The notes under the pieces: model-generated
What the model was told of the DNA's origin: nothing
The model's input: only the letters and a program-made list of their open reading frames with translations
Database searches by the model: none
Program-made: the position numbers and the translations under genes
From: an uncultured Planctomycetota bacterium
GTDB lineage: Bacteria; Planctomycetota; Planctomycetia; Gemmatales; Gemmataceae
Direction: 5' to 3'
Assembly (NCBI GenBank): GCA_963849325.1
Contig: CAWKHF010000005.1
Location: 896,001 to 960,000, forward strand
DNA: 64,000 nucleotides
Shown here: piece by piece, positions 2,595-59,464 of the stretch
Numbering within the stretch: position 1 is the stretch's first letter
Layout: each line of letters begins with the position of its first letter

Positions 2595-3446
2595 TTATTC
2601 GGCCGTTCGCCGCATCAGCGTGCCGCGCTCGGGGTCTTCGCTGTACGCGCCGCGTTCGAGGGCGGAGACGAAGTTCGCGACCCAGGCCGACAGCGACGGG
2701 GCGGCGACGGGATGATCGGATCGTCCGCGCCAGCACTCGCGCACGGGACAGCCGGGCGAAGCGAGGTCCAGGCACAGGTAATTGCCGTTGTCGTCGTCGA
2801 GGAAAGGAGTCCAGGACGATTGCCAGCCCTCGTGCGGCTGAGCGTCGAGTTCCTTCTTGGCATCGGCGATTTCTCGGGCGCCCATGAGGTTCCAGCTCTG
2901 CTCGAAGGCGCCGGGGACGTCGGCGTTCTGGCCGTTGTGCCAGCTCAGCCAGGTCCGCAACTCCTCCGGCAGCGGCCGACCCAGCGCCGCGGCCAGGGCG
3001 TCGAGCTTGGCCATGTCGGCGCCCGGCTGCAGCGCCTGCCGGAAACGCGCCCGGTGGGTGCTCAGCCACTCATCGAGGCGAGTCAGCAGGTCGTTCAGAT
3101 TGTGCCCCGACGGCGCCGGCGGGACGGTCGATGTCGCGGGGGCCGCGGCCGGAGGCGGCGCGGCCGCGGGGGCGGATTCAGCTGGCTCCGCGGGACTCTC
3201 CTTCGGTTTGGGTCCGCCGGCGTGGATCGCCTTAAGGGCTTGCTGAATCTGCTCCGTCGCCGGCCCTGGCTCCGCGGCGCCGGCCACGCAGGCACAGACC
3301 CAGGACTCCCAGCTCATGGTGTGCGGCGGCCGACGACCGCCCACCGGACGGACGGACAGTCCCTCCTTGCTCAGGGTGACGGCCAACCGTTCGCCGCCGA
3401 CTTCGATCTCGCGCGTCAAGCTCCGGGTGAACTGCTGCATGACCAA
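2595..3446 (-). CDS. SMI1/KNR4 (SUKH) domain protein with an extra N-terminal domain and Pro/Ala linker
   Basis: LQPGA..AKLDALAAALGRPLPEELRTWLSWHNGQ...W.PFLDDDNGNYLCLDL. Confidence 0.85.
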   Translation of the reverse strand: MVMQQFTRSLTREIEVGGERLAVTLSKEGLSVRPVGGRRPPHTMSWESWVCACVAGAAEPGPATEQIQQALKAIHAGGPKPKESPAEPAESAPAAAPPPAAAPATSTVPPAPSGHNLNDLLTRLDEWLSTHRARFRQALQPGADMAKLDALAAALGRPLPEELRTWLSWHNGQNADVPGAFEQSWNLMGAREIADAKKELDAQPHEGWQSSWTPFLDDDNGNYLCLDLASPGCPVRECWRGRSDHPVAAPSLSAWVANFVSALERGAYSEDPERGTLMRRTAE

Positions 3447-3621
3447 CGCTCCCCACTCGGATAGATGATGGAGGATTGAAGACAGGTTTGGAGAATCCTC
3501 AATCCTCCATCCTCAATCTCTTCCCTGGCATCCTACCGCCGGCGCCCCGGCGTGGACAGGCTTGCGCCGCCGCGGTACAACGATCCTCGGTCGTCGCCCG
3601 TGGTCGGGAGAGGAGGAACGG

Positions 3622-6623: not shown

Positions 6624-7460
6624 CTACTGGGGCCACTCCCCACGGAACACCTCGACGGCGGGGCCGGTCAGATATACGTGATTATCCGCCTCGGACCACT
6701 CCAGTTGCAAGTCGCCGCCGGGCAAATGCGCGGTGAGGCGTCGCTGCGTCCGTCCGGTGAGATGTCCGGCCACGACGACGGCGCAGGCGCCGGTGCCGCA
6801 AGCCAGCGTCTCCCCCGAGCCGCGCTCCCACACGCGCACGGTCACGTCGTCGGGTCGATTGACGCGGACGAACTCGGCGTTGACGCGGCGCGGAAACGCG
6901 GGATGGCGTTCGACCTGCGGTCCCACGCCGAGGATCAGGGCATCGGTGACATCGTCCACGAAGGTGACGCAGTGCGGATTGCCCATCGATACGCAGGTAA
7001 CGCGCAGCGTCTGCCCGGCCACGTCGAGCCCGGCGTTCAACGGCGGATCGCCGGGCAACGCGGTCGGGATGCGGTCGGCTTGCAGGATCGGCTCGCCCAT
7101 GTCCACGCGCACCTGCCGGACGGCGCCGCCGGCGATTTCCAGTTCTAGCGTCAACACGCCGCGGCCGGTCTCGATGGTCAACGGCGACTTGCGGATCAGG
7201 CCGTGATCGTGGACGAATTTGGCCACGCAACGGACGCCGTTGCCGCACATCTCCGCCTCGCTGCCGTCGGCGTTGTACATGCGCATGCGGGCATCGGCCT
7301 TGTCGGACGGACAGATGAGGATCAGCCCGTCGCTGCCAACGCCGAAGTGTCGGTCGCTGAGGACGCGACTGAGACCGGCTGGATCGTGCGGCATCGATTG
7401 GCGGAAGCAATCGACGTAGACATAATCGTTGCCGCAACCGTGCATTTTGACAAAGTGCAT
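6624..7460 (-). CDS. dapF: Diaminopimelate epimerase
   Basis: [51 protein letters not shown]. Confidence 0.98.
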
Positions 7461-7464
7461 GCCA

Positions 7465-8460
7465 TCAACTCTCTTCCGGCTCATCGGGGATTGGCGGTTG
7501 GTCGGGTGTTTCGATGGAGCGGGCCATAGTCAGGCACTCGCGTAGGAAACTCTCTAACCACCGTATCTGGCTCACCTTCGACCGCTCGAAGAAATGAATC
7601 GATTCGGAGGCCAATTCAGCACCTCGCCACCAGCGGCAGCGGCCAGGAATCCAATTTTCTTCCCCCAACTCACCTTCGCCGAGACGAGCGGCTGCTTCTG
7701 GGTCAATTCGGCAGCGTGTGCCGAACCAAAGTTCGTCTGGATTCTCGTAGGCCAAACCGAACCAATACTTTTGTCCATCGAGCCGGAGTCCAATGTAATC
7801 CCAACTCGCCGCCCTCTTGGCAGGCACTTTGCAAGCGATGGCGGTTTCGTGAAGCATGTTGAGCATGTTTGCCAATGCCCGAATCCCTTCAGGCATGTAT
7901 TTGCCCACTTGCGTCAGATTCATATTTCTCTCCCTCAAAAAGTCGAGAAACTGTCTTGCCAGAAAGCTGGCAATCTCATTGGCTGCCTCTACCGCAGGCA
8001 ACTCGCTTTCCAGCCAATCGGCAACCTCAAACCAGCGGACTTCGAGATCCGGGCGTGTTTCGTCCGCCTGGAATACCTCCGGGTACTGAGTCAAAAGAAC
8101 AAGCCGGGTCTGTTTCATGCCGGATTCAGCCAACAGCACTCGATATCCCTCTAATTGCCCGGCCCACAGCGGCGATTCCGCTTTCACCTCGATCCAAACC
8201 AAGCGATCTTTGGTGCTGATTTCCAGATCCGGCCGTCCCGAGCCGGTTTCAACTTGGGTGTGGATCTCTATGGCGCTGGCATCTCCCGGTGCCAAATCGA
8301 CAAAGCCACCCGTTAGCCGGCTCACCAATCGCATGCCGACCTCGGGAGCCAAAATCAGCAATTGTTCCAGCACAACCGCCAGCGATTCCGTCAGGAAGTT
8401 CTCATCCTGCCGGGCCGCCCATTTGTGTAATCGCGCGAACAGGTTTGGGCCGCTGGCCAA
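7465..8460 (-). CDS. PD-(D/E)XK nuclease family protein
   Basis: ENFLTE, GRPDLEI...WIEVK, QLEGY; visibly lower GC than neighbours. Confidence 0.8.
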
Positions 8461-8536
8461 GGCTCACTCCCATTCGATCATCTTGGTGAAACGCATGAAA
8501 TCAAGAATTCTCTGATTCCTCGGAGCGGTCGAATGA

Positions 8537-8854
8537 CTATGTTTTTTTACGTCCTGGTTCGCGCAGCAATCGCCGGGCTAATACTTTTTTTATTCTCTGC
8601 CAGCATTCTTCGGTAACAAAGTAGGTCTGAGTTGCGGCGTAACGTTTCCCGTCGGCGGTTTCAAAGATCACCAGCCACCCGTTGGGCCGATCCGACAAGC
8701 GCAGGTCTTGTCGGGAACCCAGATAGCGAAGACGTTCGCCGACACGAAAATGACGGCAGGTGTCCCAGGAAAAGCCCTCCCCATCCGGAGAGGCATGAAA
8801 CGCCTGAATACACACAAACTCCTCGCCGGCCTGGCACTCCAGGATCACGCTCAT
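8537..8854 (-). CDS. Hypothetical protein, candidate immunity partner of the upstream toxin-like ORF
   Basis: 105 aa ORF starting 12 nt after the 8867-9148 ORF ends; role inferred from position. Confidence 0.6.
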   Translation of the reverse strand: MSVILECQAGEEFVCIQAFHASPDGEGFSWDTCRHFRVGERLRYLGSRQDLRLSDRPNGWLVIFETADGKRYAATQTYFVTEECWQRIKKVLARRLLREPGRKKT

Positions 8855-8866
8855 CGTTCGCGCCTT

Positions 8867-9148
8867 TCAGGAAAAGTTGTCCTCGCCATGATGAACGTCG
8901 CCATCCGGCCGAACATTTGTATGAGAACCATTCGGATGCTGCACGTCCCAATGAAAATCCTCTTCGCGTCCGCTGGGATGAGGGTGCGGCACCCACTCAT
9001 TGCCGTTCGCATCCAGATAACCATCCTGCGGGCCACGCGGCGGGTTTCTCAACCAATCATCTCGCTTCGGCGGAACAAACGAGTGCCTGCCCCGCCGCGG
9101 AAGCAACCGCCAGGGGTACTTCGTCGGCCAATCCTCTGCCGAAGCCAT
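8867..9148 (-). CDS. Stand-alone polymorphic-toxin-like domain (Ntox17/Ntox37-like, predicted RNase)
   Basis: LP..GR..FVPP...PRGPQDGYLDANGNEWVP...HWDVQHPNGSHTNV.PDG resembles the remembered Ntox17/37 consensus. Confidence 0.7.
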   Translation of the reverse strand: MASAEDWPTKYPWRLLPRRGRHSFVPPKRDDWLRNPPRGPQDGYLDANGNEWVPHPHPSGREEDFHWDVQHPNGSHTNVRPDGDVHHGEDNFS

Positions 9149-9160
9149 TCGGATTTATCC

Positions 9161-10715
9161 TCATTCCCATTCAATCGTCGCCGGCGGCTTGCTGGTGACA
9201 TCGTAAACGACCCGGTTCACTCCCGCCACCGAGTTGACGATCCGCGCCGACACCTTGCCCAGCAATTCATACGGCAGCTTCGACCAGTCGGCGGTCATGA
9301 AATCGTCCGTCTGCACCACGCGCAGGGCGATGACATTTTCATAGGTCCGGCCGTCGCCCATGACGCCGACGGACTGGATCGGCAACAGCACCGCGAACGC
9401 CTGCGACGTTCTGGCGATACCACCCAGACTGCTTCAATTCGTCGAGCAAAATCGCATCGGCCTGGCGGAGAACGGCGAGACGCTCGGCGGTGACGGGACC
9501 GAGGCAGCGCACGGCCAGGCCGGGACCGGGGAACGGATGCCGATAGACCAGTGCCTCGGGCAGCCCCAGCTCGACGCCGAGGCGGCGCACCTCGTCCTTG
9601 AACAAGTCCTTGAGCGGTTCGATCAGCTCGAAGCCGAGTTCCTTGGGCAGTCCACCGACGTTGTGATGGGTCTTGATGTTGGCGGCGGGACCGTCGGCCG
9701 CGCCGCCGCTCTCGATCACGTCCGGGTAGAGCGTGCCCTGGGCGAGGAAGTGAGCGCCCTCGATGTGGCGCGCCTCGTCCTTGAACACGTCGATGAAAAC
9801 GTGACCGATGCGACGCCGCTTCTCCTGCGGATCGCTGATGCCTTCCAGCGCCTGCAGGAAGCGGGCGCCGGCATCGACGATGTGCAAATCGGCCTGGAAA
9901 TGTCCGGTGAACGTGCGCCGCACCGACTCGACCTCGCCCTGGCGCAGCAGGCCATTATCGACGAAGATGCACGACACCTGCCGGCCAACCGCCCGCAACA
10001 GCAGGGCGGCCGTCACCGACGAATCGACGCCGCCGGACAGGCCGCACAGGACGCGCCGATCGCCGACACGCTCGACCAGCGCCGCCACCGTCTGCGACAG
10101 GAATGAGTCGATCCGCCACAAGCCCTGGCAGCCGCACACGTCGTAGAGAAAATTGCGGAGGATGCGCGTGCCCTGCGGCGTGTGGCTGACCTCGGGATGG
10201 AACTGCAAGCCGTAGACGGGACGAGTGCGATGACGGGTCGCGGCCATCGGACAGGTATCGGTCGCGGCCAGGGACACGAAATCGCCCTGCACCAGCTGTA
10301 CCTGGTCGCCGTGGCTCATCCACACGGTCGTCTCGCTCGGCACACCGGCGAACAATCCGTCGGCGTCGGTGATGCGGCAGACGGCTGGGCCGAACTCGCG
10401 GCTGGGGGCCGACAGAACCTTGCCGCCGAGCAGGTGACAGGCCAGTTGCATGCCGTAGCAGATGCCGAGCACGGGGATGCCGAGGTCGAACAGGCGCGGA
10501 TCGCAGCGCGGCGCCTTGGCGGCGTAGACGCTGGCCGGGCCGCCGGAGAAGATCAGGCCGCGCGGCTTCAACTCGGCGATGCGCTCGGCCGCGAGGTCGT
10601 GGCGGACGATCTGGCAAAAGACGTTCAGCTCGCGGACACGGCGGGCGATGAGCTGGCCGTACTGCGAGCCGAAGTCGAGAATCAGGATCGTTTCATTCTC
10701 AGGCAAAGCAGTCAT
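9161..10715 (-). CDS. guaA: GMP synthase, glutamine-hydrolysing (frameshift near 9410)
   Basis: [58 protein letters not shown]. Confidence 0.98.
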
Positions 10716-10723
10716 GGGACTTC

Positions 10724-11023
10724 TTATTGAAAAAAAGACTCCTGATAGTGGCGAATTTCTTCCGGCGTCGGTTCCGGAGAATCGGCCGAAAATTTGGCGA
10801 ACAGCACGTCCAACAAGGAAGCATCGTCAATGCGTCCGTTACTGCGAAAGCGTTCCACTTCAATTTCGCCATTCTGAAGAAATTCGATCTCCCAATACTC
10901 GCCAGGAACACCGGCCACGACCATGATGGCATCGTCGCGCGAATGTTCCATCGTATAAGAGATCTTCGCTCGATCGAGGCGCTCGAGAAAAGCCAGCAGC
11001 TTGGTGAATTGATCGTCTTTCAT
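10724..11023 (-). CDS. Conserved hypothetical acidic protein, candidate immunity/antitoxin
   Basis: LLAFLERL...IMV...[10 protein letters not shown]...[14 protein letters not shown] overlap with the upstream ORF. Confidence 0.7.
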
Positions 11024-11226
11024 TTGTCAAACCTCTTTGTGTTGAGAAGCTTGTAAATCGTTCGGAATCCCGTCTCTCCTCGTTGCGCTTTTTCCACGAC
11101 CTCTTCCCACGTTAAGGACAGGATGTCACCCCAACTCGGAGAACCGGGACCCAAGGGAGCATATTTGATGCGCGCCTGTTTGCCCTTGAGGATCTCGGCG
11201 ACCGTTTTCCCGGCGTAATCCGCCAT
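11020..11226 (-). CDS. Small basic hypothetical protein, candidate toxin domain
   Basis: 68 aa ending [10 protein letters not shown]; starts 1 nt after the proC stop; coupled to 10724-11023. Confidence 0.65.
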   Translation of the reverse strand: MADYAGKTVAEILKGKQARIKYAPLGPGSPSWGDILSLTWEEVVEKAQRGETGFRTIYKLLNTKRFDK

Positions 11227-11227
11227 C

Positions 11228-12044
11228 TCAAGACTCTCCCAATTCTACCGCTCGCCGCGTGGCCGCCTCAACGGCATCCATCAGGGCTCCTCTCACGCCG
11301 CCGCGCTCCAGGGCGTGCAGACCGGCGATGGTGGTGCCGCCGGGACTGGCCACCATGTCCTTGAGCACGCCCGGATGTGTCCGTGTGTCCAGAACCATTT
11401 TCGCCGCGCCGAGCACCGTCTGCGCCGCCAGCGCCGTCGCCACGTCGCGCGGCAAGCCCACGCGCACGCCGCCGTCGGACAGCGCCTCGATCATCAGGTA
11501 CACGAAGGCCGGCCCACTGCCGGACAAGCCGGTGACGGCGTCGAGCAGGTGCTCGGGCAGCCGAAACGCCACGCCGACGGCGCCCAGCAGCCGATCGACC
11601 AGGGCGACGTCCTCGGCCGTGGCGTTCTCGCCGGGGCTGTAGCCGGACGGCGCTGGCGCCAACCAGGCACGGCGTATTCGGCATGACGCGCACCAGCCGG
11701 CAGTCCGGGCCGAGTCCGTCGGCGAGTTGTCGCAGCGTGATGCCGGCCGCGATGGAGACGACCAGCTGCCCCTTCAGCACCGGACGAATTTCCTCCAGGA
11801 GCGCGGCCATCGATTGCGGCTTGACGGCGAGGACGAGCAACTCGCTGGCGGCGACGACCGCGCGGTTGTCGGCGACGGCGGGGCAGCCGGTCTCGGCGGT
11901 GAATGCCTGGCGAGCCAGCGGCAACGGATCACTGGCGCGGCAGTCCTCGGCGCGCACCAACCCGGCCCGCAGCCAGCCCCGCGCCAGCGCCGTCGCCATG
12001 CGTCCGGCGCCCAGGAAACCAATCCGAGCCATCGCGTCCGCCAT
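11228..12044 (-). CDS. proC: Pyrroline-5-carboxylate reductase (frameshift near 11650)
   Basis: [41 protein letters not shown]. Confidence 0.97.
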
Positions 12045-12145: not shown

Positions 12146-12565
12146 TCAGGCGTCGGCCCAGTTCTCCAGTTGCAGCCCCGGCACCAGGCGAAAGTGGCGC
12201 AGATTGCGGGTGACGAGTGTTGCTCGGTGTGCCAAGGCGATGGCGGCGATGAGCAGGTCGGCGCGACCGATTTTCTTGAGTTTCTTGTCCTGCCGCAAGC
12301 GGTCGAATTCAGCGGCAGATGCGGCATCGATGGAGATGGTGTCGAACTCGTTCAGGTTTTGCTCGGCTTCTTGCAGCAACTGCTGGGCACGTTCCAGTTG
12401 TGCCCCGTCGGCGGCCTTGAGCAGGAAATCCCACCGCCCCCGAAGAACCTCGATTCGGGAAACAATGGTTATGGCGATCAGGTCCGTTGTTGCCAGGGCA
12501 CGCGCCGCCACTCGGGGATGAGCGTGGATAAGCAGCGTCACGGTATCGGTATCGAGGAGGATCAT
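12146..12565 (-). CDS. vapC: PIN-domain VapC-type toxin
   Basis: ILLDTD...E...DLLIAAIALAHRATLVTRNLRHF..VPGL.LENW. Confidence 0.93.
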   Translation of the reverse strand: MILLDTDTVTLLIHAHPRVAARALATTDLIAITIVSRIEVLRGRWDFLLKAADGAQLERAQQLLQEAEQNLNEFDTISIDAASAAEFDRLRQDKKLKKIGRADLLIAAIALAHRATLVTRNLRHFRLVPGLQLENWADA

Positions 12566-12933
12566 TCACCTTCCTCGGTCATCGGCCGACCGCGTTGCCG
12601 ATAAATCTCCTTGAGGAACTCATCAAGGTCCGGATGGTCCTTCCAGGCGCCGATCACGGACAGGATAGCTTCTTTGCTTGATTTCCGCGGCGGCGTGCGC
12701 AGCCAATCTTGCAACGCGGACTTCAAGAATCGCCATTCGCCGCCGATCCGTCGGCCCGGGATGCCGTCGCGGCCAATCATCCCCCGCAGATCGGCTTCCG
12801 CCACGCGCAGATACGCCGCCACCTCAGCCAGCGTCAACACTTCGCTGGACGTATCCGGAGGGGGAGGCGCCATCGGCGGAGACGGTGGCTGGGAAGGTTT
12901 CGTTGGACTCGGTTTCGCTTTCGTTCGCGGCAT
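12562..12933 (-). CDS. Putative antitoxin with excisionase-like HTH (HTH_17)
   Basis: EVLTLAEVAAYLRV...IPGRRIGGEWRF; own RBS (aaggaagg) and ATG at 12933; ATGA overlap with vapC. Confidence 0.85.
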   Translation of the reverse strand: MPRTKAKPSPTKPSQPPSPPMAPPPPDTSSEVLTLAEVAAYLRVAEADLRGMIGRDGIPGRRIGGEWRFLKSALQDWLRTPPRKSSKEAILSVIGAWKDHPDLDEFLKEIYRQRGRPMTEEGE

Positions 12934-12962
12934 GATCGTTCCTTCCTTTCCGGGAAATCTCT

Positions 12963-14540
12963 TTAACTCGCCGCGGCCGGCTCGCGCGGCGGCGCCTCGG
13001 TCGAGTGGATGCGCTGCTCGGCGGCCATCCGCAGGGCGATGCGGTTGATGACCTGCAAGAACGCCAGGGCGCTGGCCTCGATGATGTCGGTGCTCACGGC
13101 CCGGCCGTTGATGACGCTTGCCGTTGTACTCGGCCTCGATGTGGGCCTCGCCCTGGGCGTCCTCGCCGACCGTCACGCTGCGAATGCGGTAATCGCGCAG
13201 CTTCACCTCGATGCCGGTGATCTGCTCGATGGCCTTGAACACCGCATCGACCGGCCCGTCGCCGAGGCTGGCCTGGCGGACGATGGTGCCGTCCTGGTGC
13301 CACAGGCACACCGCCGCCGACGGGATCGTCGCCGAGCCGGCGTTGCACGTCACCGCCTCCAGCGTCCACAGCGTCGGGCCGCTGTGGATCTGCGCCTCGG
13401 CCAGCGCCTCAACGTCGGCGTCGTAAATCACCTTTTTGCGATCGGCCAACGCCTTGAAGCCGTCGAAGACCTTCTGCAACTGCTCTTCGTTGAGGTGATA
13501 GCCCAGGTCGAGGACGCGCTGGCGCAGGGCGTGCCGGCCGCTGTGCTTGCCCAGCACCAACTCCGTCTGCGCCACGCCGACGTCCTCGGGGTTCATGATC
13601 TCGTAGGTGGTCCGCTCCTTGAGCATGCCGTCCTGGTGGATGCCCGCTTCGTGGGCGAAGGCGTTCTGGCCGACGATGGCCTTGTTGCGCTGCACCTGGA
13701 TGCCGGTGACGTGCGACACCAGCCGGCTCGTCGGGTACAGCTTCTTGGTGTTGATGTGCGTCGTGACCTGGAAGTAATCCTGCCGCGTGCGCACGGCCAT
13801 GACGACCTCTTCGAGGGCGCAGTTGCCGGCGCGTTCGCCGAGGCCGTTGATGGTGCATTCGACCTGGCGGGCGCCCTCGGCGATGGCGGCGAGGCTGTTG
13901 GCCACGGCCATGCCGAGGTCGTTGTGGCAGTGGACGCTGATGATCGCCTTGTCGATGCCGCGGACGTGCTTCTTGAGGTGGGCGATGGCGGCGGCGTACT
14001 GGCTCGGGCACCGCGTAGCCGACCGTGTCGGGGATGTTCACCGTCGTCGCGCCGGCCTCGATGGCGCGCTCGACCACTTCGGTCGAGGAAATCCAGTTCG
14101 GTGCGGGCGGCGTCCTCCGGCGAGAACTCGACGTCGTCGCAGTAGCCGCGGCGCGCTGGACGCCCTCGACGGCGCGGCGGATGATCTCTTCCTTGGCCAT
14201 CTTGAGCTTGAATTCGCGGTGGATGGCGCTGGTGGCGAGGAAGACGTGGATGCGCGGCCGGGCGCAGTCGCGCAGGGCTTCGCCGGCGCGGTCGATGTCG
14301 GCGGCGTTGCAGCGGGCCAGGCCGCAGATGATCGGCCCCTCGACCTCGCGGGCGATGGCCTGCACCGCCTCGAAGTCGCCCGGCGAGGCGATGGGGAAGC
14401 CGGCCTCGATGACGTCCACGCCGAGATCCTTGAGGGCGTGCGCCACCTGGAGCTTCTCGGCCAGGTTCATGCTGGCGCCCGGGCGATTGCTCGCCGTCGC
14501 GCAGCGTCGTGTCGAAGATGATCAGGCGGTCGTCGGTCAT
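12963..14540 (-). CDS. leuA: 2-isopropylmalate synthase (several indels)
   Basis: IFDTTLRDGEQSPG, IEAGFP, NIPDTVG, GERAGN, NAFAHEAGIHQDG, LGKHSGR, GDGPVDA; true-frame stop TAA at 12965-12963. Confidence 0.96.
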
Positions 14541-58757: not shown

Positions 58758-58958
58758 TCATGCGTTCCCAGCGTCGCCGCCATTCAAAAGCGCCGGTGTA
58801 AGCGGGTGAAGGAGATAGCGGCTGAGTGCTGTCTCCTTCAAGTGTGCTTCAAGAGCCTTCATGAGTATCCATTCGCTGCAGTAGACCGGGACGTCATTCT
58901 GGTCTTTCGAGGTATTGCGGCTCTCCGGCCAGCTCGGCAGGTGAGTTCGTTCGGCCAT
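58758..58958 (-). CDS. Possible small hypothetical protein
   Basis: 66 aa ORF with a purine-rich SD-like leader; no family recognised. Confidence 0.25.
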   Translation of the reverse strand: MAERTHLPSWPESRNTSKDQNDVPVYCSEWILMKALEAHLKETALSRYLLHPLTPALLNGGDAGNA

Positions 58959-59023
58959 CCTTTCCTCTTTCCGCCGGCTATGGTATCCTCTCAGGAGAAA
59001 CGGATCATCCAGGAGGAACGGCC

Positions 59024-59246
59024 ATACCTGTCAGCATCGAGGCGTTGGGGATCGACCGGCTCAGTGTCCGGGAGCGGCTGGAATTGATCGAGCAGATCTG
59101 GGATAGTTTGCCCGAAGACGTGAATCCCGATGAGGTGCCGCCGTGGCACCTGGCAGAACTCGCCAAGCGGCGCAGAGGCCGACGCCTCTCCGGGAGTAGG
59201 CAAGCCGTGGCGCGAGTCCCTGGCGCGGTTCGGGAACGGATCATGA
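59024..59246 (+). pseudogene. Addiction-module antitoxin (TIGR02574-like); start reads ATA, frameshift near 59175
   Basis: SD aggagg then ATA CCT GTC...; LSVRERLELIEQIWDSL...W...EL.KR...PW. Confidence 0.75.
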
Positions 59247-59464
59247 ATTTACCTGTGATCCTTCGGCCTTCGGCCGACGCTGACATCCAGGCGACCCACG
59301 ACGAACTGGAACAGTTGCAAGCCGGCCTGGGTATTCGTTTCGTAGCCCGCGTGCGGGAGGTGCTGGATCGCATCGAAGGGATGCCCATGCTGTACGGTCT
59401 GGTATGGCAGGATGTACGGGCGGCGCGGCTGCGGAGGCAACCGGCACTCGGTCGGTTGGGATGA
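59243..59464 (+). pseudogene. RelE/ParE-family toxin, C-terminally truncated
   Basis: VILRPSADADI......E....GLG.RF...V...L.RI..MP......DVR.A.LRR; the usual FPY...Y...V..V.H tail is missing. Confidence 0.75.

Follow-up and report, generated by a model that had tools for sequence, protein, structure and literature searches.

A stand-alone Ntox17/Ntox37-type toxin domain and a candidate immunity partner encoded behind guaA in an uncultured planctomycete

A 64,000-nucleotide (nt) stretch of contig CAWKHF010000005.1, assembled from an uncultured planctomycete of the Gemmataceae (GCA_963849325.1) and hereafter called the window, encodes directly behind the GMP synthase gene guaA a protein of 93 amino acids (aa) related to the polymorphic-toxin domains Ntox17 and Ntox37, followed by a 105-aa partner that appears to belong to no described family. 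We hold with good confidence that the two form a toxin-immunity pair of some kind, and lean, with less assurance, towards a cytoplasmic cassette that acts inside its producer in the manner of a toxin-antitoxin (TA) system. A first-pass annotation of this DNA had described the two open reading frames (ORFs) in 8537..9148 without stating their strand; both exist, and both are on the minus strand. They are real genes rather than chance ORFs: in a word-indexed protein search their relatives passed E<=1e-3 (56 of 56 candidates for the toxin, 193 of 194 for the partner) and their ratio of nonsynonymous to synonymous substitution (dN/dS) is low. Two long plus-strand ORFs overlapping the same DNA (8632..9198 and 8708..9493) are antisense ORFs of a kind common in 65% G+C DNA.

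The toxin domain and its carrier-borne relatives

In a Pfam search, the 93-aa protein scored 46.6 bits against Ntox17 (PF15524; E=4e-12, gathering cut-off 25), with residues 16-72 aligned to positions 12-70 of the 98-position profile, and 30.7 bits against Ntox37 (PF15535; E=4.7e-7, cut-off 27.8). Both scores are above the curated cut-offs and bear out the family assignment made in the first pass, for which a hidden Markov model (HMM) search had been named as the check. No match was found in NCBIfam or, at E<=1, in PADLOC-DB 2.0. The relatives are nearly all 87-102 aa long and 59-88% identical to the query, and some, from metagenome-assembled genomes (MAGs) of Gemmataceae and Tepidisphaerales, carry the NCBI name ‘polymorphic toxin type 17 (or 37) domain-containing protein’.

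The motifs quoted earlier for this protein (GYLD..GNEW.P and HWDVQH..G.H.NV..DG) are all in the translation, as G43-Y-L-D46, G49-N-E-W52-V-P54, H66-W-D-V-Q-H71, G74, H76, N78-V79 and D82-G83. In an alignment of the clade (51 sequences, comprising the window protein and 50 of the 56 hits, with six fragments of 60-69 aa dropped), W52, H66, W67, D68, V69 and H76 are invariant, E51 is nearly so, and an N-terminal arm (WPxKYPWRLLPR..G.HPFVPP) is conserved. A superfamily alignment that included classical Imm31-paired Ntox17 tips from plasmids showed that the residues conserved superfamily-wide (P17, G43, D46, N50, W52, W67, D68, H76 and G83) are all kept in the toxin. Ntox17 has been characterised as ‘mostly beta; ExD, H’ with Imm31 as its immunity protein, and Ntox37 as ‘all-beta; E, [KR], Hx[DH]’ with Imm32; both are tabulated, and undiscussed in the available text of that source (PMC3482391). 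At the position of the Ntox17 ExD motif, which reads EWD in classical members, our protein has H66-W-D68, and an insert of ~14 residues after WDVQ is absent. The Hx[DH] motif of Ntox37 is present as this same HWD, and E51 is available for its E. The HWD in place of EWD and the missing insert put the toxin closer to the Ntox37 type.

A search of 1.84 billion representatives with the clade profile returned 588 clusters at E<=1e-3, of which 75 reached E<=1e-10 and one reached E<=1e-30. When the best 150 of the 588 representative clusters were re-scored, in 88 the domain lay no more than 25 residues from the end of a longer protein, at its C-terminus (median length 282 aa, maximum 1766 aa), 41 were proteins of at most 125 aa, some of them surely fragments, and 21 showed other arrangements. 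Pfam analysis of 70 of the 109 longer proteins identified RHS/YD-shell repeats in 10, PT-HINT in 12 and eCIS_core in 3. Judged by these relatives, the domain is a classical polymorphic-toxin tip and the window protein that tip and essentially nothing else: the carriers align to the clade profile only from position 9-16 onward, and therefore the 93 residues are essentially the bare domain, as the first pass had held in calling the protein carrier-less. The first ~15 residues lie outside the carrier-matched region, yet are conserved in the clade, whose planctomycete members are consistently ~93 aa long (~87-102 aa in 17 intact loci). No N-terminal trafficking or presentation domain of polymorphic toxins was found on the 93-aa protein, and the 3 kb on either side of the pair are free of carrier genes at all 21 loci. 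Likewise, in 18 of 18 pairs neither the toxin nor the partner has a hydrophobic 15-residue window sufficient for a signal peptide or membrane helix, in line with the earlier remark that a secretion part is lacking.

One candidate carrier, P0178 (897 aa, nine matched stretches), was rejected as an unrelated repeat protein with an FHWNVENA motif. Another relative of the toxin domain, P0185 (256 aa), has a hydrophobic N-terminal segment, a proline-rich linker and a hydrophobic C-terminal segment. The N-terminal segment presumably resembles a Flp/Tad-pilin leader. This carrier type is not among the carriers listed in the available part of PMC3482391.

The confident AlphaFold2 (AF2) model of the toxin (predicted local distance difference test, pLDDT, 87.6) shows an N-terminal arm, ordered but for the most part without regular secondary structure, and a sheet of three strands. 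The CdiA-CT chains 4ntq_A and 6d7y_A reached a Foldseek probability of 0.2 only against this model, and a sequence search of the PDB with the toxin profile gave no match at E<=10.

The partner protein

The partner matched no Pfam family at E<=1, no NCBIfam family and no PADLOC entry at E<=1. Immunity families, including Imm32, matched none of 61 partner members in Pfam or NCBIfam even at E<=10, in scans run without an Imm32 positive control. The copies of these libraries missed annotated Imm31 proteins themselves (0 of 3 and 0 of 4), and the library scans are no valid test for Imm31; a direct hhalign comparison of the 61-sequence partner profile with four RefSeq-annotated Imm31 proteins gave a probability of 0.07%, the Imm31 profile being shallow. 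The partner family is well populated; for the 120 relatives listed there is no precomputed Pfam domain, and the sole name from any source is ‘hypothetical protein’. The first pass had left this ORF unassigned and thought of a new family; in agreement with this, the partner appears to belong to no described family and, as most likely the antidote, is a candidate for a new immunity family.

The AF2 model of the partner (pLDDT 89) has a beta-barrel at residues ~10-81, a helix at 82-98 and a basic, poorly ordered tail; the barrel itself is acidic. In Foldseek searches the best PDB matches were SH3 domains, at E values of about 0.1 (best 0.096) and template-modelling (TM) scores to the target of 0.6-0.7, and BFVD contained unnamed phage proteins of the same fold class (best E=0.0077). 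The partner is thus predicted to be an SH3-like barrel with a C-terminal helix. A sequence search of the PDB with the partner profile yielded only two chance matches (E=1.1). DUF3601 was considered and rejected: the best ESM Atlas value was 0.90 with a recognition of 1868 (<2300), the label stood on 18% of one cluster, and Pfam DUF3601 matched 0 of 61 members. Longer forms are rare, namely a 390-aa partner-DapF read-through (1 of 170 candidates) and, among the representatives, a 231-aa toxin-partner read-through with a scrambled toxin middle (P0201); both fusions were dismissed as gene-calling or frameshift products. A prediction of the toxin-partner complex, with both proteins supplied as alignments and without controls, scored 0.01 against a mark of 0.32, which says nothing either way.

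Pairing, divergence and selection

The toxin profile was searched against 185,579 species genomes; of 39 matched stretches 21 were confirmed, giving 21 toxin loci in 20 MAGs. Nearly all of the MAGs bear the label Gemmataceae, Isosphaerales, Isosphaeraceae, Tepidisphaerales or Planctomycetota; the labels Alcaligenaceae and Alphaproteobacteria on the two others may reflect mistaken binning. An HMM search of six-frame ORFs placed the partner directly 3' of the toxin on the same strand at 21 of 21 loci, with each gene present once at every locus and once in the window. Co-occurrence had been named as a check on the pair, and a cognate gene directly downstream is the layout of polymorphic toxins, by which the partner would confer immunity. 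In the 17 intact loci the gap between the two is 0-28 nt, mostly 12, with an AGG/GGAG run before the partner, and the start codon of all 17 (ATG in 15, GTG in 2) is no more than eight codons from where it is expected. At L018 and L021 the toxin is short at its N-terminus, and one MAG holds two diverged copies of the pair (L007 and L014).

Divergence was compared over 18 pairs (17 loci and the window; L018, L019, L020 and L021 were dropped). Pairwise toxin identities correlate with those of the partners (Mantel r=0.63, reached in 0 of 2000 permutations), which is a sign of co-inheritance and not of co-evolution, because shared ancestry alone can produce such a correlation. Mean identity is 68% for the toxin and 49% for the partner; a toxin more conserved than its immunity protein is usual for toxin-immunity pairs. 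dN/dS was computed for 11 closely related pairs, with synonymous divergence (dS) near or beyond saturation throughout, and was 0.04-0.11 for the toxin (6 comparisons with estimable dS) and 0.05-0.29 for the partner (9 comparisons). Both genes are under purifying selection.

Genomic context

The order of the genes is given in Table 1; guaA was identified by Pfam in the window and in the orthologues at L001, L006 and L020, and by tblastn synteny.

Table 1. Layout of the guaA, toxin and partner genes in the window, with the evidence for each feature.
Feature	Position	Strand	Evidence
guaA (GMP synthase), directly upstream gene	9161..10715	-	Pfam GATase, NAD_synthase, GMP_synt_C
Spacer between guaA stop and toxin ATG, 12 nt	9149..9160	-	Sequence; promoter scan
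Putative stand-alone Ntox17/Ntox37-superfamily toxin domain, 93 aa	8867..9148	-	Pfam, alignments, AF2 model, dN/dS
Spacer between toxin stop and partner ATG, 12 nt	8855..8866	-	Sequence; spacing table
Partner, candidate immunity protein, 105 aa	8537..8854	-	3' of toxin in 21/21 loci; AF2, Foldseek

The guaA TGA (9161-9163) and the toxin ATG (9146-9148) enclose exactly the 12-nt gap described in the first pass, which on the minus strand reads TGA-GGATAAATCCGA-ATG; a Shine-Dalgarno-like GAGGA run straddles the guaA stop ahead of the toxin. The toxin TGA (8867-8869) and the partner ATG (8852-8854) enclose the second spacer, with a Shine-Dalgarno-like AAGG run. A promoter scan of 7300-11300 found no minus-strand promoter-like site in the guaA-toxin gap, and no convincing terminator follows the pair in the window, so that co-transcription of the pair with guaA is likely. 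In the window, guaA itself is broken into ORFs of 458 and 76 aa by one extra base at ~9414 (within 9300-9460, minus strand), where a DNA alignment shows CGCC against CG-C in L001 and L020; proC (11228-12044) is likewise split between two frames. Either these breaks are assembly indel errors or the housekeeping genes are broken.

At the other loci, too, the genes upstream of the pair are metabolic and on the same strand. guaA occupies this place in the window and at L001, L006 and L020 (gap 8 to 13 nt), the class-II amidotransferase subunit of a split glutamate synthase at L002, L004, L005 and L013 (gap -4 to -16 nt, an overlap), and the glutamate-synthase amidotransferase subunit also at L012. 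The remainder comprises DUF1501 (L011, gap -1 nt, an overlap; L007, 96 nt), NAD kinase (L010, 3 nt), DAHP synthase (L016, 86 nt) and NIR_SIR (L018, 82 nt). Counting the window, the toxin gene of 10 of 22 loci begins no more than 13 nt from the stop codon of an upstream gene identified by Pfam, or overlaps that stop, the upstream gene being guaA, the glutamate-synthase amidotransferase, DUF1501 or NAD kinase. At L002, L004, L005, L012 and L013 the pair sits inside the split glutamate synthase operon, in the order amidotransferase, pair, GXGXG, FMN subunit, and in four of these five MAGs the toxin gene begins before the amidotransferase gene has ended. A specific link to glutamine amidotransferases, which are upstream in 9 of 22 loci, was considered and rejected, since elsewhere DUF1501, NAD kinase, DAHP synthase or NIR_SIR takes the upstream place; it is further undercut by the two amidotransferase contexts being only two clades.

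In a tree built from the concatenated pair, loci of like context fall together, with support of 0.95 for the guaA-dapF clade, 1.0 for a clade with a beta-propeller neighbour and 0.97 for the DUF1501 clade, the glutamate-synthase context being paraphyletic. Because of this grouping, the history of the pair is one of a few relocations followed by vertical descent. The pair has a lower G+C content than the flanking DNA in 16 of 17 loci (window values: toxin 58.9%, partner 54.7%, guaA and dapF 66%), which is common for accessory genes, and an IS110 transposase lies ~1.4 kb from the pair at L009. Pfam analysis of 128 flanking ORFs within 3 kb on either side of the 21 pairs found no RHS, HINT, eCIS (extracellular contractile injection system) or VgrG-type domain, and the same analysis of 68 ORFs of the 64-kb window found no secretion or carrier gene (RHS, HINT, eCIS). 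Neither protein has a match in the phage collection, and the partner has none in the plasmid collection, where the toxin does match. No cassette ends or hairpins 3' of the partner are common across contexts, and Rfam and tRNA scans found nothing near the pair.

In the window and L020, a gene for a 331-aa PD-(D/E)XK nuclease-like protein (7465-8460, minus strand; 56% G+C) stands between the partner and dapF as an accessory insertion that is not in L001 or L006. Its Pfam match to PDDEXK_4 (E=0.027) is below the cut-off, and ESM Atlas values to PDDEXK_4 clusters are 0.96-0.97. Directly upstream of it, the last ~20 nt of guaA (..IEWE-stop) are repeated, so that the two copies (9160-9179 and 8463-8482 in the window, 17 of 20 positions identical; about 9969-9990 and 10616-10637 in L020) bracket the toxin-partner pair. 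Beside the repeat, at about 8479-8496 in the window, is an 18-nt copy of the dapF 5' end (MRFTKM). The repeat looks like the scar of a cassette exchange or of a Campbell-type insertion in the guaA-dapF slot.

Comparison with known systems

The toxin matches 10 plasmid records at 33-46% identity, of which four were inspected. The Pantoea, Arsenophonus and Serratia plasmids each have an Ntox17 tip that is part of, or next to, a CdiA-type gene (VENN or DUF637), with an annotated Imm31 gene (71-77 aa) after it; on a Variovorax plasmid the 86-aa Ntox17 gene is stand-alone, with no annotated neighbour. With the Ntox17-Imm31 tips of CdiA, MafB and Rhs toxins our protein shares a homologous domain, including the elements LP..G..VPP, GY.D..GNEW, WDVQ and G.H.N, and a (here candidate) immunity gene directly downstream. 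Unlike those tips, the pair has no carrier, the toxin reads HWD instead of EWD and lacks the ~14-residue insert, and the partner is not Imm31 by profile; unlike systems in contact-dependent inhibition (CDI) and Maf islands, it is housed in a chromosomal metabolic operon. Imm31 is described as all-beta (PMC3482391). The likeness to Ntox37 tips consists of a score above the cut-off, the H66-W-D68 motif and a compact HWDVQHPDGSHTNV core that is also found in Ntox37-scoring carriers; it differs from Ntox37-Imm32 in that the toxin is stand-alone and the partner has no Imm32 match in Pfam, within the limits of the scan given above.

Two other kinds of system invite comparison. Ntox24 and RES domains are found in polymorphic toxins and also in what appear to be type II TA pairs with new antitoxins (PMC3482391), and the present pair resembles Ntox24 and RES-DUF2384 pairs in being a small free-standing domain, known also as a secreted tip, beside a small candidate neutraliser of an unnamed family. 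It is unlike them in that the toxin gene comes first, the pair has no evident promoter to itself, no DNA-binding domain is recognisable in the partner, and the genes follow housekeeping genes and are largely vertically inherited. Orphan CdiA-CT/CdiI and Rhs-CT/RhsI cassettes likewise comprise a toxin tip and an immunity gene without the N-terminal carrier; in contrast to them, our pair has no parent carrier nearby, has its own start codon with a ribosome-binding-site-like run, and is under purifying selection across saturated synonymous divergence. A literature search, with supplementary files outside its scope, returned no measured activity for Ntox17 or Ntox37 and no paper describing the toxin-partner pair; NTox_17 is merely listed as a candidate factor in the available part of PMC11745345.

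Interpretation of the pair

In the reading that we favour, the 93-aa protein would be an enzyme that consists of the bare Ntox17/37-type domain and has a conserved face rich in His, Asp and His residues, for which RNA cleavage is the activity predicted in print. The SH3-like partner, translated from the same mRNA 12 nt downstream, would bind and block the toxin one-to-one, as immunity proteins of polymorphic toxins do. Having no promoter of its own, the cassette would ride the guaA transcript and, in other genomes, other metabolic operons. Because there is neither an export signal nor a carrier, the toxin would act on its own cell only, when its balance with the partner is lost; and because it could act only there, the pair may be expected to behave as a TA or addiction module, descended from or sister to the secreted polymorphic toxin tips.

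The first-pass annotation had arrived at a cytoplasmic TA or abortive-infection module with RNase activity. For the TA part, the lack of a carrier and of an export signal speaks in favour, whereas neither a promoter in the 12-nt gap nor a recognisable DNA-binding antitoxin was found; with no promoter-like site and no Pfam domain on the partner, the pair does not have the form of an autoregulated type II TA operon. The RNase is printed as a prediction for PF15524 in PMC9970974 and PMC4436062, as seen in the available text of each, but NTox_17 is listed among predicted pore-forming effectors in the available part of a 2025 review (PMC12288458), which contradicts it. A role in abortive infection finds no support: there is no PADLOC match and no match in the phage collection, the neighbours are metabolic and there is no defence island.

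That contradiction, the missing promoter and DNA-binding domain, the toxin gene standing first, and the absence of a PADLOC match (E<=1 for either protein) and of a defence-island neighbourhood all weigh against the favoured reading, and several further points do so as well. The position of the pair tracks phylogeny and its pace is about that of the housekeeping neighbours (at L001 the toxin is 85% identical and guaA 86%), so that the pair resembles a long-established resident of the genome more than a selfish, mobile module. With a median isoelectric point (pI) of 6.0 in 18 sequences, the toxin is mildly acidic, and an acidic pI is unusual for an RNA-binding toxin. Its AF2 model has no significant neighbour in the PDB (Foldseek, none at E<=0.001, best E ~1). 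Partner clusters exceed toxin clusters (193 to 56). At L020 the toxin is split between two frames, and at L019 the partner is split and the toxin C-terminus cut; if these breaks are real and not read errors, loss is tolerated. Finally, the analysis consists of sequence and models, and toxicity and partner binding stay predicted.

The alternative that fares best, which we nevertheless consider unlikely, is that the toxin is an exported antibacterial effector, leaving the cell by a carrier-free route (as cargo of a contractile injection system or by another planctomycete path) to kill neighbouring cells, and that the partner protects kin. The C-terminal position of the domain in 88 of the best 150 representatives, its RHS/YD, PT-HINT and eCIS_core carriers and the CdiA-type carriers on plasmids speak for this, as do the toxin-then-immunity order with a tight gap, which is the polymorphic-toxin layout, and the faster divergence of the partner. 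However, the toxin has no signal-like segment, no secretion, VgrG/PAAR, Rhs or eCIS gene was found within 3 kb on either side of the 21 loci or in the 64-kb window, and metabolic operons with overlapping stop and start codons are an unusual place for cargo effectors.

We think it improbable that the pair is a domesticated enzyme and its regulator with a housekeeping or stress role, for example operon-tied RNA processing or turnover, in which the partner would tune rather than protect. Such a role would suit the stable position of the pair within clades, the strong purifying selection on the toxin (dN/dS 0.04-0.11), the translational coupling to central-metabolism genes in 10 of 22 loci, the acidic toxin pI, and the absence of the pair from the phage collection and of the partner from the plasmid collection. 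The superfamily-conserved residues are all kept, though, with no sign of an altered active site, and the upstream genes (guaA, the gltS amidotransferase, DUF1501, NAD kinase, DAHP synthase, NIR_SIR) belong to no single pathway; 21 loci in 20 MAGs among 185,579 species genomes is a patchy distribution for a housekeeping function, and the G+C of the pair is below that of its flanks. A silent orphan cassette, a spare tip and immunity gene kept for recombination into a carrier elsewhere with only the immunity gene functionally expressed, is very improbable: free-standing cassettes that encode a toxin are counted among the defining features of polymorphic toxin loci in the available part of PMC3482391, and orphan-like fragments accompany Imm31 on the Pantoea and Serratia plasmids, but none of the 21 loci has a carrier gene within 3 kb, start codons are in place in 17 of 17 intact loci with a Shine-Dalgarno-like run before the partner, the first ~15 residues outside the carrier-matched region are conserved in the clade, and the toxin is more constrained than the partner, the opposite of what is expected of an unexpressed cassette.

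Other features of the window

Several other small genes of the window deserve mention. Two ORFs overlapping by ATGA lie between proC and guaA (10724-11023 and 11020-11226, minus strand; 99 and 68 aa); they have a G+C content of about 51-53%, are conserved in L006 and L020, have no Pfam match, and may be another small two-gene module. A PIN-domain (VapC-like) gene (12146-12565, minus strand) follows an HTH_17 (excisionase-type) segment, which occupies the 3' part of 12562-13911 (minus strand) and shares a reading frame with the end of leuA; the two probably form a VapBC-like pair behind leuA, with the same habit of standing behind a housekeeping gene. A protein with an SMI1_KNR4 (SUKH-1) domain is encoded at 2598-3512 (minus strand), with no adjoining toxin gene noticed; SUKH-1 is a known immunity-protein family of polymorphic toxins. 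An ‘Unstab_antitox’ (putative addiction module component) ORF is found at 58865-59461 (plus strand).

Implications

A more far-reaching form of the cytoplasmic TA-like reading, which we offer as a speculation with the chances against it, is a promoter-less cassette specialised in lodging 3' of central-metabolism genes of planctomycetes (guaA, the glutamate-synthase amidotransferase subunit, NAD kinase and, at 86 nt, DAHP synthase), often translationally coupled to them by stop and start codons that overlap, with the partner as a new SH3-like immunity fold that may grip the conserved proline-rich N-terminal arm of the toxin (L-P..G..VPP). If this were true, the amounts of toxin and antidote made would follow the expression of the operon, and the operon could become ‘addictive’, or growth could be braked when translation of the operon falters.

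Should the partner be confirmed as the antidote, the Ntox17/37 toxins would gain a further family of immunity proteins, probably of a new fold class as well, and a soluble 93-aa toxin with a 105-aa blocker would be a convenient pair with which to approach the structure and target of a widespread domain. To our knowledge, neither secreted-toxin tips of this kind nor intracellular two-gene modules of this kind have been studied in Planctomycetota. If the cytoplasmic reading is true, a secreted-toxin tip and an intracellular two-gene module would share one domain in this phylum, and the module would hitch-hike behind housekeeping genes in a manner distinct from classical TA operons.

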